Of a stretch of 64,000 nt of DNA, positions 1,570 to 44,044 are shown one piece after another. Made by a program: the position numbers and the translations under genes. Source of the DNA: an uncultured Candidatus Saccharibacteria bacterium (GTDB lineage: Bacteria; Patescibacteriota; WWE3; 2-01-FULL-39-13); assembly GCA_964370865.1 (NCBI GenBank), contig CAYJKF010000001.1, positions 111,766 to 175,765 of the forward strand. The letters run 5' to 3'. The number at the start of each line of letters is the position of its first letter. Within the stretch, counting starts at the first letter, position 1. The notes beneath the pieces were generated by a model. The model was not told the origin of the DNA and searched no databases. It saw nothing but the letters and a program-made list of their open reading frames with translations.

Positions 1570-1929
1570 TTATTTCAATAAAGTAGGAATAACAAATTGA
1601 ACATTAACTCCGATTAGTCCTCCAACAAATTGTACTAGCCATCCAAGACTTAATGATAGTAAACCTAATACTACTATTACAACGGCCTTCTTGATACCGT
1701 TACTGAAATCAGCCATTGCTTCCTCGCTATCTGATTGGGATAGTTTGTATACTAGCATCATAAGAGTGTATGCAAGTCCAATAAAGGTTAACGCCCATCC
1801 AAGGTAAGAAAACAAATTCAATAGAAAATTGAAGATAGAATACATGCTATCAACTTGTCCGATTTCTGGTAATACTCCAAGATCCTCCTCGGTTATCGCA
1901 TAAGCTTTCTTCACAATAAAATCCATCAT
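1570..1929 (-). CDS. small two-helix membrane protein, VirB2/TrbC-pilin-like paralog (second copy)
   Basis: 119 aa. The motifs YLGWALTFIGLAYTLMMLVYKLSQSDSEEAMADF and LGLLSLSLGWLVQFVGGLIG align almost position by position with the 2033..2455 product. Confidence 0.5.
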   Translation of the reverse strand: MMDFIVKKAYAITEEDLGVLPEIGQVDSMYSIFNFLLNLFSYLGWALTFIGLAYTLMMLVYKLSQSDSEEAMADFSNGIKKAVVIVVLGLLSLSLGWLVQFVGGLIGVNVQFVIPTLLK

Positions 1930-1943
1930 TATTTATATTCTAG

Positions 1944-1976
1944 CAAAAAAGAACGGGGTGCTAAAGCACCCCGTTC
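1944..1976 (-). terminator. rho-independent terminator after first pilin-like gene
   Basis: Perfect 11-bp GC-rich stem gaacggggtgc/gcaccccgttc (1951-1961/1966-1976) with a 4-nt loop. On the minus strand it is followed by TTTTTT (plus-strand aaaaaa at 1945-1950). It sits between the stop of 2033..2455 and the start of 1570..1929. Confidence 0.6.
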
Positions 1977-2032
1977 TTACTCCAAGATGCACTTTTATAA
2001 CTGCATCCTTCAATACCTAAATCGAGTTGTTA

Positions 2033-2455
2033 CTATCCAACAGCAGACACTGGTACATCTGTGAACGGATCAGTTGGTGTTATTTCGTATCCGAAAATTC
2101 CACCTACGAATGTAATTAACCATCCTAAACTCAAAAGTAACAATCCTGCAATAACAATCAAAACTGCCTTAGTTATATAACCTTGTACAGTCTTCATGGC
2201 CTCTTCATTATCTGCATTAAAAAGTTTATATATTAATGAGAATAAAACGAAACCAATTCCAATAAATACCCCCGCCCATCCAAGATACCTAAAGATATTA
2301 TAAACAAACAACAATATCGTATTAAGACCCTCTAGATCTCCGAAATCATTACTCGCTGAATACTCAGTACCCACTAACTCTTGTGCAAATGAAGGAGTCA
2401 CCAATAAAACAAACATTCCAGTGTACGCTGCTAAAATTCCATATAACTTTTTCAT
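2033..2455 (-). CDS. secreted two-helix membrane protein, VirB2/TrbC-pilin-like (putative major subunit)
   Basis: 140 aa. N-terminal signal-peptide-like segment (MKKLYGILAAYTGMFVLLVTPSFAQ), then two hydrophobic helices flanking NADNEEAMKTVQGY. Strong SD AGGAGGTG sits 4-5 nt upstream of the ATG (reverse complement of 2456-2475), and the gene has its own terminator. Confidence 0.55.
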   Translation of the reverse strand: MKKLYGILAAYTGMFVLLVTPSFAQELVGTEYSASNDFGDLEGLNTILLFVYNIFRYLGWAGVFIGIGFVLFSLIYKLFNADNEEAMKTVQGYITKAVLIVIAGLLLLSLGWLITFVGGIFGYEITPTDPFTDVPVSAVG

Positions 2456-2601
2456 AATTCACCTCCTAAGGTAAAAATATTTTAATAAATATTAACTATT
2501 CAACTGAATAAATTCTATACAATAAACCAGATAAACACAACAAACAAGGCAACAGCAGATAATAGCACAACCAGGGTCAAATTGGTATACTTGTCCTAAT
2601 T

Positions 2602-4470
2602 ATGCCTGCCAATTTACGCTCAAAAATTAATAAAATTTTAGGGAACCTATTAATAGTCTTTTTATTGTTAGCGGGATTTACCTTATTTGCTACAAATACC
2701 CTAGCTGATGAAGCCGAAGATTTAAAAAAAATTGAAGAAGAAATCAAGAAACAAGAAAAAGAGCTTAAAGAAACCGAATCTGAACTTAACAAGGTCCGAG
2801 ATAAATCAAAGCAGATTTCAGATACCCTATCGAAACTCTCTGGTAATTTAAATCTAAATCAATCTCAAATAGACGATCTGCAAAAAAATATAGATGAACT
2901 TACAGTAGATATTAATAATTTAGACAAGAAAATGGGGATAAAAAAGGGCGATTTAGAACAAAATACTAAAATCAGAGATATTGCCCTTAAAGAGCTCTAT
3001 ATAAACAACAAGAAAAATCTTGCAGAAGTAGTTTTAGCCGAATCAGGTGTAAGCCAAATGTTCGAAACAGCAGCTTACTACTTCAATTTTGTGAACAACT
3101 CAGAATCACTAATTAGTCTTATAAATGGGGATATAAAGGGATACGAAGAAGACAAAAACGAAGTCGCCGAGATCAAAGCAAAAATCGAGACTCAAAAAGA
3201 CCAACTTAAAAAAGTAGTTGATCAACTGGCTGCTCAAGTAAATAAATCAAAGACTGACCTAGCCTCAACTGAAAAAGATGCTAATTCACTCGAAGGTGAG
3301 AAACAGAACATTCAAAGAAAACTATCAGAACTATCAGCAAAACAGCAAGCAATTTTAGGTGAGAAGACAGATAGTGGAACATTCACAACGAGTGTAGGAG
3401 ATATCCCTATGACAGGTGAAGCAAGTTCACGCGCTGACTTTAATCCTGGTTTTAAAAAAGCCTTCGCTGGATTCTCTTTTGGCGCACCACATAGAAAAGG
3501 TCTTAGCCAATATGGAGCAAAAGGCCGCGCTGAAGATGGCCAAGATTATAAGGAAATACTCAAAGCATATTATGGTGATATAGAAATTGTTGAAATGAGC
3601 GGACTTCCAAAAAACATATCCACCGATAAGGGTTCGCTAGAATTAGATGGTAAGTATCTAAATGGTCTAGCAGAAATGCCTGCTTCGTGGCATAAAGAAG
3701 CACTAAAAGCTCAAGCAGTCGCAGCAAGAACCTATGCACTTTCATATGTTGGATGGCGAGTCTCCGATAAAGAAGCCAAAAAATCTATTTGTACAACAGA
3801 AAGCTGCCAAGTGTGGTCATCCAGCAAAGCAACTGCTTCATCTGCGGCAAGTTGGCACAAAGCCGTAAGCGACACAAAGTCAGAAGTTATGGTAAGTAAA
3901 AAATCTGGTGATATATTCTCTGCCTTTTATGCAGCTTCATCTGGAGGATATAACTACAGTTATTCTAGTATCGGACACAGTACAAAAGGCGGCTGGGACA
4001 CAGAATGTGGCTCCAAAAACTGCTGGACTAGCGAAGCTTACGAAAGTAAAGGTGGTTCACCCTGGTTTTATAAAGGATGGTATAAATCAAGATCAAATAA
4101 AGCCTGTGGAAGATCTCACCCATGGCTAACCGAAAGTGAATTTGCAGATATAGTAGGAGCAGCTGTTCTCTACACTAAAGATGAAGGAAATGAGGCGCAT
4201 CTATCTCAAATTGATGCACAATCCTGCTGGGGTGAAAGTATAAGTGGAACATGGTCGAGAGATACAGTTAAGGAAAAAACTGGAATAACGAGCGTAGACA
4301 GCGTTTCTGTAAGTTACTCTAACGGTGGAACGACGGCTGAAGTGAAAATAAAAACTAATAAAGGCGAATATAAATTTAGCGGAGAGGACTTTAGAGATAT
4401 ATTTAATCTGAGAGCACCTGGAGTGCTAAATATAAAAAGCGCCTTATACAATATTGAAGTTAAAGATTAA
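2602..4470 (+). CDS. membrane-anchored coiled-coil protein with C-terminal SpoIID/LytB-type domain (peptidoglycan-remodelling)
   Basis: 622 aa. N-terminal TM/signal (ILGNLLIVFLLLAGFTLFA). About 250 aa of heptad-like K/E/L/Q-rich sequence follows. The C-terminal region carries EMPASWHKEALKAQAVAARTYALSY, which I recognise as the conserved SpoIID/LytB signature. Confidence 0.6.
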   Translation: MPANLRSKINKILGNLLIVFLLLAGFTLFATNTLADEAEDLKKIEEEIKKQEKELKETESELNKVRDKSKQISDTLSKLSGNLNLNQSQIDDLQKNIDELTVDINNLDKKMGIKKGDLEQNTKIRDIALKELYINNKKNLAEVVLAESGVSQMFETAAYYFNFVNNSESLISLINGDIKGYEEDKNEVAEIKAKIETQKDQLKKVVDQLAAQVNKSKTDLASTEKDANSLEGEKQNIQRKLSELSAKQQAILGEKTDSGTFTTSVGDIPMTGEASSRADFNPGFKKAFAGFSFGAPHRKGLSQYGAKGRAEDGQDYKEILKAYYGDIEIVEMSGLPKNISTDKGSLELDGKYLNGLAEMPASWHKEALKAQAVAARTYALSYVGWRVSDKEAKKSICTTESCQVWSSSKATASSAASWHKAVSDTKSEVMVSKKSGDIFSAFYAASSGGYNYSYSSIGHSTKGGWDTECGSKNCWTSEAYESKGGSPWFYKGWYKSRSNKACGRSHPWLTESEFADIVGAAVLYTKDEGNEAHLSQIDAQSCWGESISGTWSRDTVKEKTGITSVDSVSVSYSNGGTTAEVKIKTNKGEYKFSGEDFRDIFNLRAPGVLNIKSALYNIEVKD

Positions 4471-4471
4471 T

Positions 4472-5461
4472 CTAAAGTACACCAAACAAATCGGTTACCA
4501 CAATTCTAACAATCACACCTGAAAGAATTATTAAAAATAATCCTTGTATCCAAGACATGAACATATCTTTTCCCTTTTGAATTGTTGCTGGATCACCGCT
4601 AGATAAGTTAAGACCAATTAGTGGAAGCATAAAGAGCGAAGAAACAACACCAAGTCCTATTGCTAAGATATGTGCATTTGATCCAAGTGCAGTAAAACAA
4701 GACTCAATTCCAGCATCTGGACTACAACCCTCAAATAGTCCCCCATCAAATTCAAAACCGGGACCACTTAAGGGATCTCCAGGCACTGGTACATCTGGAT
4801 CACCAGGCGCATCCACTGGGTCGGGATCGCCTTCTATTGGCTCTGGAACATCATCCTCGTCAAGCGGTGCAGTGTAATCGAAGTAGAATGGTTGCAAACC
4901 CAAGGCGTCACCATAAAATATGCTACCATCTCGCGCAGGATCCCTTACTGGCCTTAGATAGGATAAGTTGTAACTAGCATTGTCATTCAGTTCCTGAATC
5001 ATCGCTGTCGGCAATAAAGGGTTTAACGGAATTCTAAGACCTGCACCCGAAAATAATGCATCTAGGGCGGTAGAAAGTTCTGTCGCTTTTGCTTGGGTAA
5101 CTTCAGAAGGTGAATCTACGCCCAACATTTGAGTATATAACAATGCGTTTAGGCTAAAACTAAACATATCCCCTCCTGCAATTGGTACAATTTCTCCGTC
5201 TTGCACTGAATAATCACCAATGACGATAATATAGTCATTTACATAATCACCTGATTCTCCAATTCCATCCCAAGGAATTGGACTATAAGTAAGGGGGTTG
5301 AAAGTAATATCTTTAAGCGTTAAGTACATCATTCCATCCTCTGGGTCCTGTTCGTAACCAATTCCACCAATCAATACGTCATCCTGGGCATATAATGGAC
5401 TTGAAGATAAAAGAAAAAAGAAAATACCAAGTAATCCTAAAATTAATTTGTTTGTTATCAT
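4472..5461 (-). CDS. secreted Asp/Pro-rich protein with C-terminal hydrophobic hairpin
   Basis: 329 aa. Signal peptide ending LYAQ|DD. Acidic proline-rich stretch DPDPVDAPGDPDVPVPGDP. Two C-terminal hydrophobic helices. It is convergent with 2602..4470 with a 1-nt gap. Confidence 0.4.
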   Translation of the reverse strand: MITNKLILGLLGIFFFLLSSSPLYAQDDVLIGGIGYEQDPEDGMMYLTLKDITFNPLTYSPIPWDGIGESGDYVNDYIIVIGDYSVQDGEIVPIAGGDMFSFSLNALLYTQMLGVDSPSEVTQAKATELSTALDALFSGAGLRIPLNPLLPTAMIQELNDNASYNLSYLRPVRDPARDGSIFYGDALGLQPFYFDYTAPLDEDDVPEPIEGDPDPVDAPGDPDVPVPGDPLSGPGFEFDGGLFEGCSPDAGIESCFTALGSNAHILAIGLGVVSSLFMLPLIGLNLSSGDPATIQKGKDMFMSWIQGLFLIILSGVIVRIVVTDLFGVL

Positions 5462-5513
5462 TTACATAAATTTAACAGATAGCATTTAAAACTTCTATGC
5501 TAAAATATTTCTA

Positions 5514-5927
5514 ATGACAAATAGAAACAGTCGATTATTGGTTTTATTCTCAATTGCAAGCGCAGAGATTTCTTTTTTACTACCTCGGTATGCATATGCC
5601 CAAGGATGCCAATACGATTTGGATGGAGATCCCCCTGAATTTGGGCCTTATATAGTTTCGTGTTTCCCTAATGTATGGTCAACGATGAGTACACTTATGA
5701 TTGCAGTCGCAATAGGCAGCGCGATGTTACTTCTTTTTACTACTATTAGAGCAAGAAACAATCCTAAAAATTTAGAAACCATTCCTTCGAGATGGATGAA
5801 TTTGATTTTATTTGCCCTTCTAGCAATTGGAGTAGGGGGAACATTATTGAATTTCTTATTAGGCCTTATTGGAGCTGGAAGAGTTCAAACATACATCGAT
5901 ATGCTAGAAAGTGTTTTAAATCCTTAA
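5514..5927 (+). CDS. small secreted membrane protein (signal peptide + two C-terminal helices)
   Basis: 137 aa. Signal-like N-terminus ending AYAQ|GC, a Cys-containing short domain, then two hydrophobic helices. Its architecture resembles the pilin-like set. Confidence 0.35.
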   Translation: MTNRNSRLLVLFSIASAEISFLLPRYAYAQGCQYDLDGDPPEFGPYIVSCFPNVWSTMSTLMIAVAIGSAMLLLFTTIRARNNPKNLETIPSRWMNLILFALLAIGVGGTLLNFLLGLIGAGRVQTYIDMLESVLNP

Positions 5928-5939
5928 AGAAATTTTATT

Positions 5940-7397
5940 CTATTTTCTCTTTTTTGGTCCTGCATCTTCTCCACCGAATAGGGGTTGAACTCCAAGTAAG
6001 CCATCTACAATTTTTCTAGCATTTCTTGCTTTCCAAATTATAGAAATACCAAGAAGCCCCTTTAGTAATACGAACCAAAATTCTAATGTTGTATTAATTA
6101 TATTAAACCCGCTAAACAAAGACTCGCCACTGACATCAGGAGCTATACTCATAATTCCCAAACCTATGACTACAAGAAGGAGCAATAACGGTAATGCAAT
6201 TACATCTGAAACGATTCTCTTTCCAAGATTCATAGCAAGACCCTGTTTACCAGGTAGAACTGATAATAAACCAACAAATGGCGCAAGAACGATTGTTGAT
6301 ACAAGGGATACAAAAATCTTAATGAAACCCCAAAGCCCCGCAAACATAACTACTACTATACCTACAATTGCGGCGACCAAAAAAAGTGCCATTCCAACAC
6401 CATATACGTGTAATCTACTTATTACTCCTATGGCACTATTTAGTGCTCCAACTGCAATAGTCCATACACTAATATCCTGAACCGTGCCCCCCATAATACT
6501 CACGAGTAAGGTTGCCCCGATCCTTAAAGCAAGACCGAGTAGAGGCGGGATTAATGCAAAAGCAGCACTAATAATCGGATAGGATAATAAAATTATTCCA
6601 AGTCCTAGCGGTATTAATGGAAGTACGGAATAAACTGACACCGTGACTTGAGGAGAAATTTTAGTTCTAAACATAATCATCAAACCTACGAGTGCTAGAG
6701 CTGCTCCGAAAAGTGCCAAAGAAATATTTCGTGTAATTTTCCAAGACTCTAAAACAAACTTCTCAAAGGTAGAACCAAAAAAACCGCTCTGAGCATAGGC
6801 CGGTGTAGTAAAAATTGTATTTCCTAAAGTATCGTCAACATATAAAGCTAAATTTGTAGGAATTGGTGCCGTATTAGGTGAAGTCAAGAAGGCGAGACTA
6901 TTACTACCTATATGCCCCAAGCCGTTAGGAATTCTGACATACTCACCTTTTCCAAGATCATTAAAATTTGTTGCATTTGTCCATGTTGCGGCTGGGTCAA
7001 TACAAACTCCACTTTCTAAAAGCTCTTCCATTGTTTGATCGCATACATGTTGAGTTATATTGTTATAAACCAAATTTTGCATTAAAAATGATTGCCCCCA
7101 CATATTCGCATTTAATTCGCATTGACCATCTGAATCTACAAATTCTTTGAAACCACACCATAGGTTGTATACAGAAGATAATGATCTCCAAGCTTGTACG
7201 CCAGCTGTAACCGGATTGATAGCCTCTGCAGGAGTTGGATCTACTAATGCTCCAACTTGTGCATTTGTGGCATTTGGTTTTAATAGTGCAGACATTAAAA
7301 CAGCAAAAATGAAAATTGATAAGGCAAAGGGGAATACCCTGTCACCAAAGTTTTGTATTTTTCTAATTAATGAGAATAAAGCGACGATAATATTCAT
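5940..7397 (-). CDS. polytopic membrane protein, VirB6/TrbL-like candidate
   Basis: 485 aa. N-terminal signal/TM, a ~180-aa extracytoplasmic region, then at least 6 hydrophobic helices and a basic C-terminal tail (KKRK). The call rests on topology and genomic context only. Confidence 0.4.
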   Translation of the reverse strand: MNIIVALFSLIRKIQNFGDRVFPFALSIFIFAVLMSALLKPNATNAQVGALVDPTPAEAINPVTAGVQAWRSLSSVYNLWCGFKEFVDSDGQCELNANMWGQSFLMQNLVYNNITQHVCDQTMEELLESGVCIDPAATWTNATNFNDLGKGEYVRIPNGLGHIGSNSLAFLTSPNTAPIPTNLALYVDDTLGNTIFTTPAYAQSGFFGSTFEKFVLESWKITRNISLALFGAALALVGLMIMFRTKISPQVTVSVYSVLPLIPLGLGIILLSYPIISAAFALIPPLLGLALRIGATLLVSIMGGTVQDISVWTIAVGALNSAIGVISRLHVYGVGMALFLVAAIVGIVVVMFAGLWGFIKIFVSLVSTIVLAPFVGLLSVLPGKQGLAMNLGKRIVSDVIALPLLLLLVVIGLGIMSIAPDVSGESLFSGFNIINTTLEFWFVLLKGLLGISIIWKARNARKIVDGLLGVQPLFGGEDAGPKKRK

Positions 7398-7496
7398 AAA
7401 TATAATTAAAGTTATTCTACAAAATATAGAAACTAATACAAGCTATATAAATATCATTAACTACGTTTTTTTTGGTAGACTTTACTAAATTAATTT

Positions 7497-10400
7497 ATGC
7501 CACCAAAAAAGTTCGAGAAACCAGTCACATTTTCTGGATGGGTTGAAGATATATTTAATCTTCCTAAAGAAGTAACTAACCAGACATTCGGAGTAATAAA
7601 AACAAAACACCAAGAATATTTGGTATGGGTAGCTAAAGCTCGTGCCTCGGATGCTGATTATGCTGAAGCAGATTTAATTCGAGCTTTTACTGAAGGTGCA
7701 GAAGCTTTATCAGATTTACAGGGTATAAATACAACTATTAAAGTTAATGAACTATACGCGAAACCTATCAATACTATTAAAGCTCTGGGACAAAGCACTC
7801 TTAAACAATTGACTGACATGGATGATCTCGCTGGTTATCGACGTGCTGATGCAATCGCTAGGTTAACCAAGGGGCAAGTTACAGACGGACGAGGTAACAT
7901 ACCAAACAGCAGATATATTGATGTTGGTCGGTCAATCAATAATCCTCAAAATTTGATCTTAAAGGGACTAACTACTTCTAGAATAATTCCTCTAAAGCCT
8001 GACGCACTAGTAGAAACCACTCCTAGTGGAAAACTGCGATCAACCATGCAACTTGTAAAAGACGTAACGGAAGGAAAAGATCCAGCAGGTGTTGGAGATT
8101 GGGAAGATCGAAAAGTTGTGGAGGATGGTGTCGGCAGGGATCAACAACATAAACCGTATTTACAACTTTCCGGAGCGTTTTCGCAAATGGCAATGGGTCT
8201 TGAGTCCTATGGCTCAAGGTTAAGTCCAAAAATTACAGTTAATACCCAATACGGTCGCGCACTTGCACAAGAAGTAGGAATTGACCTGGAAAAGGTTTTA
8301 AACGGATCAAGAGGCGGATTGAAAGCCAGTTATGACCTAGACATTAAAGATGCAGTAAGCGGAAGACCAAAATTCCTAAAAGATAATAGACTCAAAAAGA
8401 GTGGAGCAGTAACAATAGGTTCTCTGCATCTCACACTAGCAGACGATGCTGGCGGTGATATTCGGAAATTATTATCCGATGACAATTTAATAGCTAAAGC
8501 ATTATCGATTAGCCCTACTGAATACACAAGTATGAGTGGTGAAGTCAAAGAATTCTTCAAAAACTTTTTAGAAAACGAAGAAATTCAGATTCGTTCCGGT
8601 TATTTAAATCCAAGGGGCGAACTTGGTGAAGAAATAAAAGCAAAATGGAATAATGCGGGACTCGTTCCCTCTCTAGAAGGCGAAATATACACTGGTGCAG
8701 GTGCTGCTTATATTAAGAATGACTTATATCATCTATCGAATGCAAAAAGTACAAAACAGTATCTATTAGGTGATGCGTCGCAAAAACAAATTAAAGCTGA
8801 GGCCTTAAAATCTTTGAAAAAAAAATACGGACATGACGCAAAGCTATTAACAGAAAAGACCGAAGAATTTTATGACAGATTGGCTGCGTTAAATGAAGCT
8901 ACGGTATCTGCCAACACCTTATTCGCCTCTGCAACAGTTAAAGATGCACTTAAAGCTATAAAAGATGGCGATTTTATTAAAGCAGCAATCGTCAATACAA
9001 GATTGCTGGGAATGATTCCGTTTTCAAACAAAAAGATGAGATCTCCAATCGAGTGGGCTGAAATTCTTATGCCTGATAGTGCACAAGATATCATCAATAA
9101 GGGAATAAATAGACTAACTAAACCGAAAATCGATGAGTTAAAGAGATTAGCATCAAGTACGACAGATCCGGTAATTCAACAAAGATACCTTAATCAAATT
9201 AAGAATCTAGAAGGTCTGAAAAACTGGATTAATCCAATTACAATTGCCAAGAAAGTTAGCGATACCGCACAGACAGCCATTGGTATTAAGGTAAAAGGAA
9301 GTCAATTAAACGCTGCACAAAAATTGATAAATGAGCAGACCGGACTGTTCAACTCAACTGTCTTCCTGGAATGGAGACAAAGAGATCCCGTATCCATGCA
9401 AAACGCTAAACGCTACACCATGACGCGAGTAAGTTCAAAAGATGCACAAGGCTTATATGGTAAATTTGGGGTTTTTAGTATTTTTGAAGACATAGAAGCA
9501 GCAAATTTATTCGCACATCCAAGCCTATCTGGCCTCCCATATATACATGATATGCAAACGATGTTTACTGATTTATCAAACATCGATGCATTCTATGCGG
9601 AATTAGCTCGAGTTCAGAGCCATTTAAAAGCGGGGACTCCAATACCTGCGGATTTATTAGATTTTTATAACAACGTCGTAGTACCAATGAATTTCCACGA
9701 GGCATTAGGAGGTGCGGGGGAGTTTGTCATCGACAAGGTAATGGATGGATACAATCAATATAAAGTATCAGGCAAAGTTTTACTTAATAAAATATCTGAT
9801 GACGCGAAAATGGGAGTTGGCAAATTGCATGCCATTGACAGGTGGCAATTTTTAAAAACCTTCAAAGGAAGTGGCCGTGCATCACAACTAAATGATTTAT
9901 ATACAGGCTGGTTAACAAAATATAACCGCTATGCCAACTTCTTCAATGATTACATCCAAAAAAATATTATATTTGGCGATGTACTACTTGGTGTACCTAT
10001 CTTGGGAAAACTTTTTGCTCCTATTCAGGCAGTCTTACGTACGATTGGATTTAGCGAGGAAGTTACAATTGCGGCAACTGTGAGACAGTGGAAATGGGTT
10101 CAACGGCTAATCGGAACAGGAGAAAAAGCGTCGAACATAGGGGGATCACTTTCGGCACGAAGCAGTGGTTCATTATTTGTTAAATCAAGATTTTTAAGGA
10201 ATTTAACATCAAAGTTAACAGGAAAATTTGCTGGCACAGCATTAAAAGGATTAGGATTTGCACTTAAAGGTTTAACCTCTGTAATAACTGGTGGTGTAGC
10301 TTTTGTAGTTTCCACTCTCGGTACGATGGCGTTCAGTGCCAGTTTAAAACTTATTAGAGGTGATGTAAAAGGCGCAAAAATCGCGATTAAAGATGAATTT

Positions 10401-11438
10401 AAAGGATTAGTAAAAGTAGCAAAAATTGTCGTCGGTTATCCTCTTCTTGGGTTTTGTGGCTGCATTATTATTCCAATCGTAGGTATTGCCTTTGCCGTAA
10501 TCGCGATTATGGTACCAGGTTCCATGGCGCCATTTGAAGAAGTTGGTGAAGCCGTAAATGTCGGATCGGCTCTCAGTCAATCCGACTTACTACAAGTTAA
10601 TAAATCAGCAACACTTAGCGGCGACAATACTCAAATAAACTACACAGTTGTAATTACGAATATACACACACCGACTGAACCAGATGATACAGGTGAAGTT
10701 ACAATCCAACAGATTAGTGATGTCTCGTCAATGATTTTAGGATGCGACGAACCTAATGGCGGTACTTCACACAGATATGGAGATGCTGGCTTCATAGGAA
10801 ACTACGATGCTGGTTATAATTTCAACCAATATACTGGCCATGTTTTAGCAACAGGTGAAAGCTTAACCATTACTTATACTCTTTCGAATATTACAGACAA
10901 AGATGCAACGTATAATAACAATATTAACGTCCACGAATCTAGAGAAAAAATAGCTGGAAAATATGCCATCGCGAATTCAACAACAAACATAGGTAACGGG
11001 GGGTGTAATACATGTCCTAGCGGGTGGCCTGTCACTGGTGCGGTTAATATAACTAATAGGCCTGGAGAAAGTTGGACACACAGAGGTCTTTGGCCTCATT
11101 CAATAGATTTGTCACTTGTTGAAGGAACTGAAATTTATGCCACCCATAGCGGAACCGTAGCAACCTCAAATACTGGTAACTTCGGTTATGGTACACATAT
11201 TTATCTCACCTCACCGATGGGGTTTACTAGTATTTATGGACATCTTAGCGGTTTCGCGGTAGAAAACGGAGCGACTGTTCAGGCTGGAGATTTAATCGGC
11301 TATTCTGGTGATACCGGTAACTCATCCGGTCCGCATCTGCACTATGAATTCAGAATCGGGGGCTATTGCCAAGGTCAACCACTTAAGATGAAACCACCTT
11401 TCACGCCATATTATGTACCTTATGATCCGTCGTATTAG
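7497..11438 (+). CDS. giant (1313 aa) protein with central TM hairpins and C-terminal M23/LytM peptidase domain (cell-wall hydrolase)
   Basis: The C-terminus has the M23 signatures HRGLWPHSIDL (HxxxD) and GDTGNSSGPHLHYEF (HxH), flanked by glycine-rich beta segments. Residues ~870-1000 contain several hydrophobic helices (VAFVVSTLGTMAFSASL, LLGFCGCIIIPIVGIAFAVIAIMV). The N-terminal 850 aa are predicted helical and non-secreted. Confidence 0.65.
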   Translation: MPPKKFEKPVTFSGWVEDIFNLPKEVTNQTFGVIKTKHQEYLVWVAKARASDADYAEADLIRAFTEGAEALSDLQGINTTIKVNELYAKPINTIKALGQSTLKQLTDMDDLAGYRRADAIARLTKGQVTDGRGNIPNSRYIDVGRSINNPQNLILKGLTTSRIIPLKPDALVETTPSGKLRSTMQLVKDVTEGKDPAGVGDWEDRKVVEDGVGRDQQHKPYLQLSGAFSQMAMGLESYGSRLSPKITVNTQYGRALAQEVGIDLEKVLNGSRGGLKASYDLDIKDAVSGRPKFLKDNRLKKSGAVTIGSLHLTLADDAGGDIRKLLSDDNLIAKALSISPTEYTSMSGEVKEFFKNFLENEEIQIRSGYLNPRGELGEEIKAKWNNAGLVPSLEGEIYTGAGAAYIKNDLYHLSNAKSTKQYLLGDASQKQIKAEALKSLKKKYGHDAKLLTEKTEEFYDRLAALNEATVSANTLFASATVKDALKAIKDGDFIKAAIVNTRLLGMIPFSNKKMRSPIEWAEILMPDSAQDIINKGINRLTKPKIDELKRLASSTTDPVIQQRYLNQIKNLEGLKNWINPITIAKKVSDTAQTAIGIKVKGSQLNAAQKLINEQTGLFNSTVFLEWRQRDPVSMQNAKRYTMTRVSSKDAQGLYGKFGVFSIFEDIEAANLFAHPSLSGLPYIHDMQTMFTDLSNIDAFYAELARVQSHLKAGTPIPADLLDFYNNVVVPMNFHEALGGAGEFVIDKVMDGYNQYKVSGKVLLNKISDDAKMGVGKLHAIDRWQFLKTFKGSGRASQLNDLYTGWLTKYNRYANFFNDYIQKNIIFGDVLLGVPILGKLFAPIQAVLRTIGFSEEVTIAATVRQWKWVQRLIGTGEKASNIGGSLSARSSGSLFVKSRFLRNLTSKLTGKFAGTALKGLGFALKGLTSVITGGVAFVVSTLGTMAFSASLKLIRGDVKGAKIAIKDEFKGLVKVAKIVVGYPLLGFCGCIIIPIVGIAFAVIAIMVPGSMAPFEEVGEAVNVGSALSQSDLLQVNKSATLSGDNTQINYTVVITNIHTPTEPDDTGEVTIQQISDVSSMILGCDEPNGGTSHRYGDAGFIGNYDAGYNFNQYTGHVLATGESLTITYTLSNITDKDATYNNNINVHESREKIAGKYAIANSTTNIGNGGCNTCPSGWPVTGAVNITNRPGESWTHRGLWPHSIDLSLVEGTEIYATHSGTVATSNTGNFGYGTHIYLTSPMGFTSIYGHLSGFAVENGATVQAGDLIGYSGDTGNSSGPHLHYEFRIGGYCQGQPLKMKPPFTPYYVPYDPSY

Positions 11439-16027: not shown

Positions 16028-16749
16028 TTAAAAAATTTCGCTATTTTATTAATTCCCCTTGTAACAGGAGATTCCTCCGCTTCTTCAGGTAGGTTTTTCT
16101 CAAATTTTATCCCTTTAAAATTTATTAAAGGATAATTAGGAAAAGAATTCTGTTTATAAAGTAAGTGACCTAAAAATTTCTCATAAAAACCAGCTCGGTT
16201 TAGAACAACCGTCATGTTCATTAATTCAAAGGATAATTGATGGATATCTTTTTGACGAATGTCAAAATATTCTTGAGCGGATTCACTAATGATAAATTCA
16301 ATTTCTGGCCTTTTCTTAAGCCATTTTCGTTTAAGAAAATTAAGCCTTAAAGAGGCAATCTCTTTACTTTGCTTTTTAACTATCACCAATATTTTAGTGG
16401 ATTTACTAGGATAGATTCCCACAAAAAGGACATACGGCTTACTTAAGACTTTTTTTATATCTTTCGACATTAAATTAATAGAATCCTTAAGTTCTTTAAA
16501 ATAGAGAACCCTTCTATTAATTAATCCTTTTAGTTCTTCACCTTCAGGATAAATATAATTATCTAGGAAATAAAGTGTTCCAGAGGTGATTGCTGTTGTA
16601 AGTAACTCCTTATAATTTTCAGGTGAAATTTGTTCATTTAAGAAAAAGTGATGCACTTCATCTTTTGTAGGACAAAAATAATGTTCAGATAAAAATGTAA
16701 TTGTGTCGTATAAGTCTTCAGTTAAATAATTCTCCTTATAATTTTCCAT
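16024..16749 (-). CDS. hypothetical cytoplasmic protein co-transcribed with rnhA
   Basis: 241 aa with no recognisable motifs. Its start overlaps the rnhA stop by 14 nt. It is convergent with 12476..16027, with a 4-nt overlap. Confidence 0.4.
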   Translation of the reverse strand: MENYKENYLTEDLYDTITFLSEHYFCPTKDEVHHFFLNEQISPENYKELLTTAITSGTLYFLDNYIYPEGEELKGLINRRVLYFKELKDSINLMSKDIKKVLSKPYVLFVGIYPSKSTKILVIVKKQSKEIASLRLNFLKRKWLKKRPEIEFIISESAQEYFDIRQKDIHQLSFELMNMTVVLNRAGFYEKFLGHLLYKQNSFPNYPLINFKGIKFEKNLPEEAEESPVTRGINKIAKFFN

Positions 16750-17158
16750 CGGCAGCTTTATTGTCTAAGCAGACATTTACTAATCTATCGGCTTCTTTAT
16801 TTTGTTCTCGTCTTACATGTGAAATAGTAAAATGTTCTAACTTATTAAGCAACTCACGTGCCTTGGCGTGCAGGAGCTTTAGATTCTCATCCTTAACTTT
16901 ATACTCCCCTTTTATTTGTTTAACGATTAATTCACTATCCATTCGTATCTCAATATTTGAATAAGAACCCTTCAAAGCTGATTCTATTCCCAATATCAAT
17001 GCCTTGTATTCAGCCACGTTATTTGTTGCCGTGCCGATAAATTCCGAATAACTATCCAAAATTTCCATATCTAGGTTATAAAAGACCGCGGCTATTGCTG
17101 AAGGCCCTGGATTACCCCTTGCTCCTCCATCCGTTTGTAATATTACTTTATTGTCCAT
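16736..17158 (-). CDS. rnhA: ribonuclease HI
   Basis: 140 aa. TDGGARGNPGPSAIAAV, TNNVAEYKALILGIE, MDSELIVKQ and HVRREQNKEADRLVN match the RNase H type-1 catalytic core (D, E, D, D, H). Confidence 0.8.
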   Translation of the reverse strand: MDNKVILQTDGGARGNPGPSAIAAVFYNLDMEILDSYSEFIGTATNNVAEYKALILGIESALKGSYSNIEIRMDSELIVKQIKGEYKVKDENLKLLHAKARELLNKLEHFTISHVRREQNKEADRLVNVCLDNKAADGKL

Positions 17159-32829: not shown

Positions 32830-34074
32830 ATGGAGAATCCTGCCAATGAGCAATTAAACACCCAAGAAGTCAACAATTCAGAATTCGCACAGAAAGAGCC
32901 ACTTGTTTATAAAAAAACTATAAAAAAATATGCAATGATCGCGGTGAGTGGCTTATTAGGACTGGCCATAATAATTACTGCTGTCGTTATCTATATGCGT
33001 TTTATGGATAGATTTAATGTGACGGAACCAACTCCACCGGTGACACCAACACCAACTCCTGAAATACCAAAAGCAGCATCGCCATTAATCGCCTATATTA
33101 AAAATGATAAATCAATTTGGATTGTAAACACTGATGGAACTGATAAAAAAGTATTGCTCGAACTGCCTGGATCATCGGATCAGTTCTTCTCGGATCTGAC
33201 TTGGAAAAGCAAAGGGTTTCTATCTTATTCACTCTGTGACACAAATCCAAATTGTACTGTGGAGACTTATAATTTAGAGACAAAGTCTTCTGTAACAGAA
33301 ATTAATAATTCAGAAGAAGGATTTGTGGAGTCATTAACTTGGGCACCTGAAAATAAATTCATCGGGTATTTTCAATACAAAGACCAAGGATCTCAGAACC
33401 AAACGGTGGAACTAAGACTTAAGACTGGAACAACCAATACTGTTTTATCAACACATAAAACAGAAATAAAAGATATCGAACAAGTCTCAAAAGTAACTTT
33501 CTCAGAAGACGAGGATCATATAGCCTTTGGTTTTGTAGAATTAGTTGCTTCAACAAGAGGCCGGACTATTACATATACAGCAAAACCTAAAATCTTAGTA
33601 TATAGAGTAAGCGGAGTATTGTTGGATACAATCAGCGATGCCAAAGACCCGATGTTCATAGACGAAAAAACCATCGCATATCAAAAGGGAGCACAGCTCA
33701 TACATAGGGAAATTGGGACATTATCAGAAACAGCTATTACTCCAATAACAGGATTCAACTTAGATGTTTCTCCTGACAAAAGTAAGTATGCATATTGGAG
33801 CCCTACAGGTGGATTCTCAGATGCTTTATTAATTATTTTTGATGGAAACCTAAACCTTCAAAGGAATATATTAAGAGGCGTCCTATTTCCACAGTGGATA
33901 AGCAACTCTACCGTTGTTGGGATAAAAGCTGATAACTGTTTAGGTTCAAAATGTGAATTATTCGATTATCAAACCATTAGTTTAGCTACCGTTAACATCG
34001 AAACAAAACAAGCAAATCCAATTGATCAAGGTCGCACTATTAAAGATGTTGAAGTAAATTACTATGCCAATTAA
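32830..34074 (+). CDS. membrane-anchored hypothetical protein with Pro/Thr linker and beta-rich extracytoplasmic domain
   Basis: 414 aa. TM helix IAVSGLLGLAIIITAVVIYM, linker TEPTPPVTPTPTPEIP, then a repetitive beta-strand-like domain. The stop overlaps the next gene's start by 11 nt. Confidence 0.4.
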   Translation: MENPANEQLNTQEVNNSEFAQKEPLVYKKTIKKYAMIAVSGLLGLAIIITAVVIYMRFMDRFNVTEPTPPVTPTPTPEIPKAASPLIAYIKNDKSIWIVNTDGTDKKVLLELPGSSDQFFSDLTWKSKGFLSYSLCDTNPNCTVETYNLETKSSVTEINNSEEGFVESLTWAPENKFIGYFQYKDQGSQNQTVELRLKTGTTNTVLSTHKTEIKDIEQVSKVTFSEDEDHIAFGFVELVASTRGRTITYTAKPKILVYRVSGVLLDTISDAKDPMFIDEKTIAYQKGAQLIHREIGTLSETAITPITGFNLDVSPDKSKYAYWSPTGGFSDALLIIFDGNLNLQRNILRGVLFPQWISNSTVVGIKADNCLGSKCELFDYQTISLATVNIETKQANPIDQGRTIKDVEVNYYAN

Positions 34075-35746
34075 AGAAGAATCACTAGAGGCCAATGCAG
34101 GTCAAAAACACCCAGTCCCACAGAACGTCATGGATGTTGAGTTTAAAGTTGTAGGAGATTTAACATTAAGGCAAGTCATGTATATTGCATTTGGGGGAGT
34201 TACAGCATACTTTTTATATAAAACAGGTTTACCAAATTTCTGGAAATATATACTAATGGGAATAAGTTTGATTACCGGAACGACAGTTGCTTTTGTTCCA
34301 ATTCAGGAACGCGGGCTTGATAAATGGTTAGTTATATTTATTAATTCAATCGTGAATCCGACCCAAATGATATGGAGAAAGTCTGTTAATTATGCCTCTG
34401 TATCCTTTTTATCAAACTACGACCAACTTCAAATAATAAAAAACGAAATGGTCTCACTTACACCTATTAAGAATCGTAACCGACTAGAAGAATATTTGGG
34501 TATGATTGAAAACACTCAAGATTCTAATTATGACCAATTCGAGATAACCCGAATGGGAGAAATCCAAAATAACCTAAGCGCTAAATCAAACGTTAGTGTC
34601 ACAACTCGCTTTGAAGAAACTCCAACTCTAGAACCTGTAATTCCGACTATTGATAAAGCCAGAATTCCAGAGAGAACACATGAAATAATTGACGTAGAAA
34701 AGAATCCAAAAATAGCTTCTCTTCCACACCAAAATACCATTGCTGAAGACGAGCTGGAGAGTAAGAAGGAGTTATTAAATGCCCTAGCAAACATCGAGGG
34801 AGGGTATAATAAAGATGGGCCAATCGAAATCTTTACTGAACAAAAGGTTAACAGACCTATTCTAAATCTACCTGAGCTTGGATCCAATAACTTCTCCTTG
34901 AAGGGTGAAATTAAATTAAAGAATATACGTAAATTCCCAACGGTAATCGTTGCCGAAGATATAAAAGGCATAAAAGAGCACGAAGAATCTCTAGAAAAAA
35001 AAGTATCAGAATTATTAATACTCGCAAAAAAAGCTAGAGCACAGTATCAAATTAAAAGTGGAAAAGAACCTAGTTTTAATACACCTATTGTTGAGGACGT
35101 TAAAGGCAGGGTTACGCAGTTAAGAGAGGAAAAGAAAAAACTTAAATTGGAAATTGATAAAAGCACAGAACAAGTAAATCTTATAGATAATACAAACAAA
35201 AACAGAGAAACACTTCAAAACCAAATTCAGATGTTAACACATAAAAATGAGGAACTTGAAACCATACTAAAGAAAATTAACTTAGAACTTGATGAACTGA
35301 AAGGAACACCAGAATACAAGGCTTCCAAGCAAAAAGAACCTGTAGAAAAGGTTGAAACTGAAGAAACTAAAACTGAAGAAGTGTTTACACCTGAAAAACC
35401 AATTACCCCAAAACCAATCGACAACCAGGTCGATGAGTTTAAATTCAAAGCAAGGCCATCCGTCAATAGTTCGTATCAAAACACTAATATTATCGAAGGA
35501 CTTGTAAAAGACATCTCTGGTAAACTAGTAGAAGGAGCAGCGGTTATTATTAAAGACTCACAGGGAAATGTTATTAGAGCCCTAAAAACTAACCAAGTCG
35601 GACAGTTCAGAACGCAGACTTCTGTACCAAATGGCAAATATACAATTGAAGTACTAAAAGGTGGCATGAGTTTTGATATTATAATAGTTGAAGCCGTTGG
35701 AAGGCATCTGAATCCAATTTACTTAGTAGCCAAGGAGTTAAATTAA
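34064..35746 (+). CDS. PrgI/VirB3-like two-helix membrane module fused to long coiled-coil domain
   Basis: The N-terminus DLTLRQVMYIAFGGVTAYFLY plus a second helix ILMGISLITGTTVAFVPI resembles the PrgI family of Gram-positive T4SS. It is followed by ~350 aa of K/E/L heptad-rich sequence. It lies directly upstream of the VirB4-like ORFs. Confidence 0.45.
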   Translation: MPIKEESLEANAGQKHPVPQNVMDVEFKVVGDLTLRQVMYIAFGGVTAYFLYKTGLPNFWKYILMGISLITGTTVAFVPIQERGLDKWLVIFINSIVNPTQMIWRKSVNYASVSFLSNYDQLQIIKNEMVSLTPIKNRNRLEEYLGMIENTQDSNYDQFEITRMGEIQNNLSAKSNVSVTTRFEETPTLEPVIPTIDKARIPERTHEIIDVEKNPKIASLPHQNTIAEDELESKKELLNALANIEGGYNKDGPIEIFTEQKVNRPILNLPELGSNNFSLKGEIKLKNIRKFPTVIVAEDIKGIKEHEESLEKKVSELLILAKKARAQYQIKSGKEPSFNTPIVEDVKGRVTQLREEKKKLKLEIDKSTEQVNLIDNTNKNRETLQNQIQMLTHKNEELETILKKINLELDELKGTPEYKASKQKEPVEKVETEETKTEEVFTPEKPITPKPIDNQVDEFKFKARPSVNSSYQNTNIIEGLVKDISGKLVEGAAVIIKDSQGNVIRALKTNQVGQFRTQTSVPNGKYTIEVLKGGMSFDIIIVEAVGRHLNPIYLVAKELN

Positions 35747-36442
35747 ATGAATAACAATATCAAAACTACGACACAAGGTCACCTTGACATAGCAGATATA
35801 AAAAATAATATTGTAATCTTAACAAACGGAGGAGCCTGCGCAATTATAGAAACCAATGCAATTAATTTTGATTTATTATCCCTACCCGAACAAGATGCAG
35901 CGATTTCATCCTTTAGTGCGTTGCTCAATTCCCTAACTTTTCCAATGCAGATTACAATTAGATCAAAAAAAATGGACATAAGCGAGTATTTAGAAAGGAT
36001 TAAAGAAGTTGAAGATAAACAAACAAACCCCAAGATCAGAGGACAAATAATGGCATACAGAACGTTCATCAAAGACGAACTTGTTACAAAAGAGGAAGTT
36101 TTAGATAAAAATTTTTACGTCACTATTCCATACAAAACAGTTTCTCTTGGTTCAATTTCACCTATGACTTGGATAAATGACTTAATGAATTTAGATACAA
36201 AAAACAAAAGTAAAATAAATGTCGAATCCATATTACAAGAAGCTACTCCAGATCTAGCCCCGAAAATTTCGTTTATACTTAAAGAATTCTCGAGGATGGG
36301 AATAAAAGCAAGACAATTAGGAACTGGCGAATTGATTAAACTTTTCTATGATTTATATAATAGTGAGAGTGCTCAGAGCCAGAAAATGAGGACCAATATG
36401 GCAGACTTCTCGTCTGTATTAGTTGAGCCAAAATTAGGATAA
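35747..36442 (+). CDS. VirB4/PrgJ-like conjugation ATPase, N-terminal domain (separate ORF)
   Basis: 231 aa. HLDIADIKNNIVILTNGGACAIIETNAINFDLLSLPEQDAAISSFSALLNSLTFPMQI matches the N-terminal domain pattern of Gram-positive VirB4 homologs. It ends at TAA 36440-36442, 4 nt before the next ORF, which is in a different frame. Confidence 0.55.
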   Translation: MNNNIKTTTQGHLDIADIKNNIVILTNGGACAIIETNAINFDLLSLPEQDAAISSFSALLNSLTFPMQITIRSKKMDISEYLERIKEVEDKQTNPKIRGQIMAYRTFIKDELVTKEEVLDKNFYVTIPYKTVSLGSISPMTWINDLMNLDTKNKSKINVESILQEATPDLAPKISFILKEFSRMGIKARQLGTGELIKLFYDLYNSESAQSQKMRTNMADFSSVLVEPKLG

Positions 36443-36446
36443 AAAT

Positions 36447-43967: not shown

Positions 43968-44044
43968 TGGTGGGCGGACATGGACTCGAACCATGAACCT
44001 CCAAGGTATAAGCTTGATGCTCTAACCAGTTGAGCTATCCGCCC
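43968..44044 (-). tRNA. tRNA with anticodon UAU (tRNA-Ile reading AUA), CCA encoded
   Basis: Reverse complement folds as acceptor GGGCGGA/TCCGCCC, D-arm GCTC-AACTGGTTA-GAGC, anticodon arm TCAAG-CTTATAC-CTTGG (U33, TAT, A37), T-arm CATGG-TTCGAGT-CCATG, discriminator A, CCA. Confidence 0.65.

Follow-up and report, generated by a model that had tools for sequence, protein, structure and literature searches.

Results

We analyzed a 64,000-nucleotide (64-kb) stretch of DNA, called the window below, from an uncultured Candidatus Saccharibacteria bacterium (assembly GCA_964370865.1, contig CAYJKF010000001.1, positions 111,766 to 175,765 of the forward strand), and asked what is encoded by one gene within it, that of a predicted secreted enzyme in which a SpoIID domain follows a long coiled coil. 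The GC content of the window is low (0.32–0.40), and its genes are the housekeeping set of a small genome mixed with parts of a Gram-positive-type type IV secretion system (T4SS). Together, the low GC and this mixture of genes match a chromosome of the candidate phyla radiation (CPR, or Patescibacteria). A mobile-element origin was set aside, since composition is uniform and housekeeping genes lie in between. The gene is a 622-residue open reading frame (ORF) with an ATG start, confirmed in the window at 2602–4470 on the + strand. Its parts are as follows (aa, amino acid positions in the protein).

2602–4470 (+): whole gene, encoding a putatively secreted coiled-coil and SpoIID protein; from the ORF list, with full-length homologues of about 580–620 aa
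2602–2706 (+): probable Sec-type signal peptide, aa 1–35, with a basic n-region, a hydrophobic core at aa 16–30, and the junction TLA↓DE; a family-wide pattern
2707–3009 (+): predicted coiled-coil helix 1, aa 36–136, with strong heptads at aa ~29–105; from the AlphaFold2 model
3010–3045 (+): helix break and predicted hairpin turn, aa 137–148, in the weak-heptad region LYINNKKNLAEVVLAESGVSQ; from DSSP assignment of the AlphaFold2 model and from Foldseek
3046–3369 (+): predicted coiled-coil helix 2, aa 149–256, including a match to Pfam DUF7491 at aa 150–222
3370–3456 (+): linker from hairpin to catalytic domain, aa 257–285, KTxTFTTSVGDVPxxGDPxSRxDYNPGF
3457–3597 (+): transposed C-terminal SpoIID module, aa 286–332, FSFGAPHRKGLSQYGAKGRAEDGQDYKEILKAYYGDIEI, equivalent to GHGVGMSQ...YY; profile positions 232–272, the C-terminus of SpoIIDs in the PDB
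3652–4461 (+): main body of the SpoIID lytic-transglycosylase domain, aa 351–620; canonical profile positions 22–222
3673–3675 (+): codon of E358, the predicted catalytic glutamate; from alignment to 5i1t, equivalent to E101 of Clostridioides difficile SpoIID
3994–4251 (+): family-specific insertion of ~85 aa, aa 465–550; a gap against the canonical profile

Full-length relatives occur in Shapiro-, Davies-, Levy-, and Beckwithbacteria, in Microgenomates, and in unclassified Patescibacteria; the taxonomic labels of several third-party annotation (TPA) assemblies among them are unreliable. Roughly 251 clusters at 50% identity had E ≤ 1e-30 among 1.84 billion representatives. Automated annotation already tags members of this family as SpoIID/LytB and as CwlO-like, the second name being given to several of them by the Joint Genome Institute (JGI). 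Our literature search found no description of a fusion between SpoIID and a helical hairpin, or of a permutation of SpoIID.

The SpoIID domain and its active site

A sequence-only reading of this stretch had recognized a SpoIID/LytB-type lytic enzyme from the motif EMPASWHKEALKAQAVAARTYAL (aa 358–380) and had proposed a Pfam PF08486 scan and an examination of the catalytic glutamate. Both support the assignment. PF08486 matches aa 357–431 with 68.4 bits against a cut-off of 23, and the score for TIGR02669 (SpoIID_LytB) is 110.3 bits, above its cut-off of 83.3. The predicted structure also has the three-dimensional fold of SpoIID. The enzyme domain is thus SpoIID by both sequence and predicted fold. 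The only profile matches in the protein were to SpoIID and to coiled coils; neither an SLT/lysozyme-like nor a CHAP catalytic domain was found among them.

The residue E358 aligns to the glutamate of the GEM motif in the C. difficile SpoIID structure 5i1t. It is invariant in 41 family members, in the context E[MVI]P, as is R376, the arginine of the AAR motif that follows it. Its counterpart in Bacillus subtilis SpoIID is E88. In C. difficile, E101 is essential both in vitro and in vivo (PMC6221140). The C. difficile-type zinc site (H134, C140, H145, and C146) is incomplete in the enzyme: its two cysteines are kept and conserved (C397 for C140, C402 for C146), and its histidines are replaced (E391 for H134, S401 for H145). 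This zinc site is not general to SpoIID. Conservation of the catalytic half reaches 3–4 bits per column, compared with ~1.9 in the coiled coil, as expected of a core function.

Permutation, insertion, and linker

The order of the SpoIID elements is changed in this protein. In solved SpoIIDs, the GHGVGMSQ...YY module is C-terminal, whereas here it occupies aa 292–332, ahead of the glutamate motif; within the module, H297, S302, and Q303 do not vary across the family. We compared the enzyme with a canonical profile built from 19 canonical SpoIID domains. The native sequence gave two matches in swapped order, profile positions 232–272 at aa 292–332 and positions 22–222 at aa 351–620. When aa 341–622 were artificially re-joined to aa 276–340, the result was a single match across profile positions 22–272 with 152.8 bits. 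The permuted order was found in 42 of 42 CPR relatives and in a shorter CPR protein, L045. Among 35 SpoIIDs from outside the CPR, 26 gave a single canonical match, 7 gave the canonical order in two pieces, and 2 were permuted, these last being the actinobacterial proteins L056 and L079, which have a long spacer between the modules. By its profile matches, the family is therefore a circularly permuted SpoIID subfamily and not a non-member.

The two actinobacterial genes lie at 9131–11452 in L056 (Nitriliruptorales) and at 9203–10597 in L079 (Nocardioides), and in both the GHGxGMSQ module precedes the glutamate motif by 120–200 aa. Permuted SpoIID domains are thus not confined to the CPR.

Two further segments are notable. 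First, the ~85-aa insertion carries the near-invariant residues C469, C474, C502, C542, H506, and H533, which may form disulfides or a metal site. Second, the linker between hairpin and catalytic domain has a pLDDT (AlphaFold2's per-residue confidence) below 50 over aa 255–272, yet at 3.0–3.7 bits it is among the most conserved stretches of the protein. This conserved linker is a candidate autoinhibitory or docking segment.

The shorter protein, L045 (gene at 6425–7846), is a 473-aa Patescibacteria protein from Lake Baikal that likewise has a signal peptide, a hairpin, and a permuted SpoIID domain. The Cys-rich insertion is missing from it. L045 has a more canonical DHGLGMSQ motif, a more PcsB-like hairpin center, and no pilin-like neighbor. 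It is possibly an earlier form of the family.

The N-terminus and the coiled-coil arm

Across the family, a short basic start is followed by a hydrophobic core of 15–20 residues, by A or S, and then directly by the conserved DE[LI]xD start of the first helix. Escherichia coli EnvC has the same N-terminal layout (SAHA↓DERDQL). The segment is probably a cleaved Sec signal peptide; if cleaved, the mature enzyme would not be membrane-anchored. The sequence-only reading had taken the hydrophobic stretch at aa 16–30 for a membrane anchor, an interpretation that its signal-peptide pattern (TLA↓DE in the enzyme) speaks against.

The same reading had suggested that an unusually long heptad-repeat stalk of ~250 aa could hold the catalytic domain about 30 nm from the membrane. 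A long heptad-repeat coiled coil is indeed present. The hydrophobic contrast of heptad positions a and d over aa 35–256 is 0.557 versus 0.262 ± 0.03 in shuffled sequences, a value reached by none of 500 shuffles. The segment contains no proline, and its heptad signal is weak over aa 106–147. The AlphaFold2 monomer model has helices at aa 4–136 and 149–256, with a pLDDT of ~74 for the coiled coil. In Foldseek superposition, the model matched the antiparallel hairpin of an SMC arm fragment (5nnv; TM-score 0.68 over 238 columns). Other antiparallel matches were chemoreceptor hairpins, EnvC in the Vibrio cholerae FtsEX–EnvC complex (8tzl_E), and the RipA N-domain. Searches with the full-length model returned mostly generic coiled coils and nothing at E ≤ 0.001; because these dominated, the catalytic half was modeled separately.

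The heptad region of ~220 aa is thus modeled as two helices of ~100 aa folded back on each other, an arrangement that we infer from a monomer prediction. Two helices of this length would give an arm of ~15 nm, and the fold-back would bring the catalytic domain to the same end as the N-terminus rather than 30 nm away. A rigid extended stalk, such as a parallel dimer holding an anchored enzyme ~30 nm out, would suit a proline-free, heptad-rich segment that spans 220 aa, and both the moderate confidence of the model and its monomeric nature are compatible with a parallel dimer; we nevertheless consider it highly improbable, because the helix break and weak-heptad center are family-wide, the model resembles antiparallel hairpins, the similarity to EnvC described below is colinear and EnvC is a hairpin in solved FtsEX–EnvC complexes, and a signal-peptidase-type site lies immediately ahead of the first helix.

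Likeness to EnvC

A profile of 218 positions was built from 14 coiled coils of the family. Its top match was V. cholerae EnvC (8tzk_E; E = 6.8e-9), colinear over positions 7–214 of 218. Pseudomonas aeruginosa EnvC (8i6o_E; E = 4.6e-6) ranked third and was nearly full length, and E. coli EnvC (8hd0_E; E = 8e-4, positions 9–183) ranked 17th. The remaining matches were short generic coiled coils. Since the profile matches the first two of these structures nearly end to end, the coiled coil is not unusually long for its class. Residues 1–272 of E. coli EnvC scored 24.0 bits, compared with −3.0 ± 5.3 (maximum 18.1) for 300 heptad-preserving shuffles, none of which scored higher. A pattern at the helix break, Y..(6-8)..L.LL.S...R...Y, is common to the enzyme and EnvC. 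The NCBIfam model NF008644 (EnvC) gave E = 4e-6 and 26 bits against a cut-off of 270, and L045 matched the PcsB model weakly, with 19 bits against a cut-off of 450. A phmmer search of the PDB with the coiled coil of L045 returned nothing relevant.

The layout that defines this class of proteins, namely a signal peptide, a long helical hairpin, and a C-terminal peptidoglycan-directed domain, is recognizable in the sequence and predicted structure of the enzyme. The architectural identity, including the central break of the hairpin, is clear. Homology of the coiled coil to the EnvC class is probable, not proven.

Neighborhood of the gene

The genes around the enzyme gene include VirB2-like "pilins" and other T4SS-like parts, as listed here (TM, transmembrane; HMM, hidden Markov model).

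1203–2455 (−): three VirB2-like two-TM "pilin" genes at 1203–1565, 1570–1929, and 2033–2455, with HMM E-values of 7e-13, 3e-4, and 4e-15; divergent from the enzyme gene
4472–5461 (−): protein of 329 aa ending in a VirB2-like pilin domain; HMM E = 3e-13, PF18895 sub-threshold at E = 0.018
5940–7397 (−): VirB6-like multi-TM protein; T4SS-like neighbor
7497–11438 (+): protein of 1313 aa that has several TM segments and, at aa 1202–1289, a C-terminal M23 peptidase domain (81.9 bits); T4SS-like neighbor
34064–35746 (+): PrgI/VirB3-like 560-aa protein; second T4SS-like block
36447–38561 (+): VirB4-like ATPase (TraG P-loop, 105 bits); second T4SS-like block

The pilin assignments come from a two-round HMM of VirB2-like/PF18895-type neighbors, which are small two-TM proteins; it matches the three small ORFs of the window and the 329-aa ORF. 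The latter is convergent with the enzyme gene, and 1 bp separates the two stop codons. A promoter and terminator scan of 1900–5600 gave sites no more numerous than in shuffled sequence. A strong terminator-like hairpin at 1949–1978 (−), with a 13-bp stem, 8 GC pairs, and a T-run, separates the first pilin-like gene from the second. Given this hairpin inside it, the pilin array is probably not one transcript.

The second T4SS-like block (32830–38561, +) is 28 kb from the first, with housekeeping genes between the two. It also holds proteins of 414 and 231 aa, and we saw no relaxase or coupling protein in it. Directly downstream of the first T4SS-like block lies a gene for a 140-aa RNase H/RVT_3-type protein (16736–17158, −; 88.6 bits), with no reverse transcriptase nearby. 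The window also contains a tRNA-Ile gene with anticodon TAT (UAU) at 43968–44044 (−). Most bacteria decode AUA with a lysidine-modified CAU tRNA; the tRNA-Ile(UAU) suggests TilS-independent AUA decoding.

We examined gene order in 42 related loci, 39 of them with upstream DNA, by clustering the neighbors. Genes were called by a simple longest-ORF rule, and the resulting counts are not phylogenetically independent. The adjacency to pilin genes that the sequence-only reading had pointed out recurs widely: in 28 of 39 loci, the enzyme gene has a pilin-like neighbor no more than 1.5 kb away, nearly always divergent and across a gap of 30–250 bp. The other 11 loci carry the enzyme gene without a pilin neighbor. 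Nine loci have a VirB6-like gene at a distance of at most 10 kb, and L035 has a VirB4-like gene in that range.

The other flank is conserved as well. In most relatives, three co-directional genes lie downstream and are followed by smpB (L002, 11818–14722, and 26 other loci; L001, 1273–3973). They encode a ~224-aa protein with two TM segments and a bPH domain (N224), a ~77-aa two-TM DUF5657 protein, and a ~600-aa protein (N600) with a cytoplasmic domain, a TM segment, and a repeat-rich outer domain. N224, the +1 gene, is found in 27 of 42 loci, followed further downstream by DUF5657 in 22, N600 in 20, and smpB in 17; beyond the pilins, uppS is found in 11. Conservation therefore falls with distance from the enzyme gene (28 for the pilin, 27 for the +1 gene, 17 for smpB, and 11 for uppS) and extends to unrelated housekeeping genes, as inherited gene order and neutral decay would predict. 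In L001, a close relative of the window, the downstream block lies 6 kb upstream; with that block displaced, the enzyme gene has stayed with the pilins in the lineage of the window.

We rejected adjacency alone as proof of a role in the T4SS, since the neighbor on the opposite flank is conserved just as frequently and the block also takes in smpB and uppS. We treat the pilin array beside the enzyme gene as context and not as a demonstrated component of what the enzyme does.

Discussion

The SpoIID enzyme described here combines two designs that are known separately. Our leading interpretation, which we hold tentatively and rate as somewhat short of probable, is that it is a secreted, partner-gated housekeeping autolysin, built like EnvC, PcsB, CwlO, and RipC but with a permuted, insertion-bearing SpoIID module. 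The hairpin would then be a docking and regulatory arm rather than a spacer, holding the enzyme on a membrane partner and gating its activity. By analogy with those four proteins, the likeliest docking partner would be an FtsEX-type ABC complex; the products of the conserved downstream trio could be an alternative. The released domain would work on the wall of the cell itself as it grows or divides, cutting glycan strands with E358 as general acid, and, if SpoIID-like, would act best on strands from which the peptides have already been removed. The position beside pilin genes would be explained by a gene order handed down among CPR genomes of the Microgenomatia type, perhaps together with shared regulation, and the adjacency would then not be evidence for belonging to a secretion machine.

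It is useful to compare the enzyme with the systems from which its two halves are known. EnvC (PDB 8tzk/8tzl, 8i6o, and 8hd0), PcsB, CwlO, RipC, and SEML1_0236 of the cultured CPR bacterium Southlakia epibionticum all have a signal peptide, then a hairpin of ~200–250 aa interrupted at its center by a non-heptad break, and at the C-terminus a domain directed at peptidoglycan, a layout found in the enzyme too. The hairpin similarity of the enzyme to EnvC is weak but colinear. In EnvC, PcsB, CwlO, and RipC, however, the terminal domain is of the LytM, CHAP, or NlpC/P60 peptidase type, whereas in the enzyme it is a glycan-cutting lytic transglycosylase. The EnvC class is controlled by FtsEX, whereas the enzyme gene has no ftsEX nearby; its similarity to the class lies far below the family cut-offs, and membership is not established. 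With the SpoIIDs of B. subtilis, Bacillus anthracis, and C. difficile (5i1t, 5txu, and 4rwr), the enzyme has in common the catalytic glutamate and the ALKAQAxAAR motif. It also keeps C140 of C. difficile SpoIID, the His ligands of that zinc site being replaced. It differs from canonical SpoIIDs in the position of the GHGxGMSQ...YY module, in the additional Cys-rich insertion, and in having a signal peptide and a 220-aa hairpin in place of a single N-terminal TM anchor. For the enzyme, neither a SpoIIP nor a SpoIIM partner is evident.

Several lines of evidence favor the housekeeping autolysin: the architecture, the conservation of the catalytic half, the 11 pilin-free loci, and two precedents. 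In S. epibionticum, ftsE, ftsX, and a gene for a "helical hairpin + CHAP" protein are consecutive (SEML1_0234–0236) and all essential (PMC10633639). In the non-sporulating Chlamydiales, a SpoIID homologue works at the septum of dividing cells (PMC6635528), an example of SpoIID being used for ordinary division by a bacterium with a reduced genome. FtsEX has also been reported in other Patescibacteria.

Other observations weigh against this interpretation. Neither ftsE nor ftsX is present in the 64-kb window, and a motif screen of 750 kb found no FtsE-type ABC ATPase within 10 kb of the gene in the 42 loci, the rest of those genomes lying outside the screen. In model organisms, though, envC, pcsB, and cwlO are likewise unlinked to ftsEX. 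The similarity to EnvC and PcsB is weak and far below the NCBIfam cut-offs, with a high composition bias, and when the coiled-coil profile was compared by hhalign with one sequence, that of E. coli EnvC, the alignment covered no more than 27 columns. A search of the hairpin tip and the coiled coil for a conserved patch that might serve for docking was negative, conservation there being uniform at ~1.9 bits per column; the docking-patch argument was therefore dropped. Finally, in the lineage of the window the gene remained beside the pilins as its other conserved neighbors moved 6 kb away, and the chance that a random housekeeping gene was ancestrally beside a pilin array is low, ~1% by our own estimate.

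These last two points also count for the main alternative, that the enzyme is the dedicated wall opener of a VirB2-like pilus or T4SS-like apparatus, a VirB1 substitute of unrelated fold whose hairpin docks on a membrane component of the T4SS. The enzymology is identical in the two readings; what separates them is solely the partner on which the enzyme docks. In the alternative, the enzyme would make a local gap in peptidoglycan for the filament, perhaps jointly with the neighboring M23 endopeptidase. A lytic transglycosylase together with a peptidase mirrors the SLT and CHAP pair of Gram-positive VirB1-like proteins. The pilin linkage spans 30–60% protein identity; VirB6-like genes, and in L035 a VirB4-like gene, are nearby in some loci; and in the window, pilin-like genes stand on both flanks of the gene, followed by the VirB6-like and M23 genes. 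In the lineage of the window, the enzyme gene was kept with the pilins when the N224, DUF5657, N600, and smpB genes were separated from it. In addition, a 2025 survey of CPR T4SSs found VirB2 arrays to be commonest in Microgenomatia and VirB1 to be missing from most VirB2-bearing CPR genomes (PMC12102498).

Against this alternative, over a quarter of the loci with upstream DNA are pilin-free, and the linkage to pilins is no stronger than that to the +1 gene, in a block that includes smpB and uppS. The VirB4-like gene of the window is 32 kb distant. The pilins diverge rapidly, and the catalytic domain is conserved far better than they are. The local T4SS-like cluster, moreover, already has a hydrolase: the 1313-aa M23 protein resembles SEML1_0007 in layout and is probably the cluster's own wall-cleaving enzyme. 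In S. epibionticum, hydrolases are encoded within the essential T4SS cluster itself, whose pilins are essential too: the lysozyme/CHAP protein SEML1_0006 and the giant SEML1_0007 with a C-terminal DD-peptidase domain. The annotation of that genome includes no SpoIID (PMC10633639). As the sequence-only reading had anticipated, SpoIID is not a standard T4SS component; the CPR survey does not report it as one (PMC12102498).

Among T4SS hydrolases, VirB1, PrgK, TraG of pIP501, TcpG, and the giant peptidase proteins of the CPR are likewise wall-cleaving and encoded beside T4SS-like genes, which for the enzyme are VirB2-like and VirB6-like, and the enzyme would add glycan cleavage beside the M23 peptidase. 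However, VirB1-type hydrolases have an SLT, lysozyme, or CHAP fold, whereas the enzyme has the unrelated SpoIID fold and a regulatory-type hairpin; its gene is not beside VirB4, and it is pilin-free in about a quarter of loci. The enzyme is not a VirB1 homologue, and we know of no T4SS hydrolase with an EnvC-type hairpin. We therefore regard service to a pilus or T4SS as unlikely, albeit a serious contender. The same doubtful standing is given to its fuller version, in which the enzyme would be the missing wall opener of the pilus arrays of Microgenomatia-type CPR bacteria, the pilins would be co-regulated with it through the short divergent intergenic region, the EnvC-like arm would gate activity on the secretion apparatus, and the enzyme might also cut the wall of the host where the two cells touch.

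A further reading, that of a weapon or foraging enzyme secreted to act on the peptidoglycan of a host bacterium, and so aiding contact, nutrient release, or pilus penetration, would fit the probable cleaved signal peptide without an anchor, the epibiotic lifestyle of CPR bacteria with a T4SS proposed in host interaction, and the location beside surface-filament genes, but it is improbable, since the protein has no host-targeting or cell-wall-binding domain, its hairpin architecture is typical of self-acting, partner-held autolysins, characterized SpoIIDs favor peptide-free glycan strands supplied by a partner amidase (PMC6221140, PMC6635528), and nothing in the data favors export past the producer's own wall.

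The housekeeping autolysin that we tentatively favor, and the family as a whole, may be relevant in several ways. First, the clean circular permutation of the SpoIID fold bears on the tolerance of that fold for rearrangement. Second, if the linkage to pilins is functional, it would answer a question raised by the 2025 survey of CPR T4SSs, namely how VirB2-like pili cross the wall without VirB1. Finally, the CPR make up a large and mostly uncultured part of bacterial diversity in which wall remodeling is almost unknown. Within the FtsEX-type design that joins a coiled-coil arm to a hydrolase, this family would provide the first example in which the arm bears a SpoIID domain that cuts glycan instead of a peptidase or an amidase activator.

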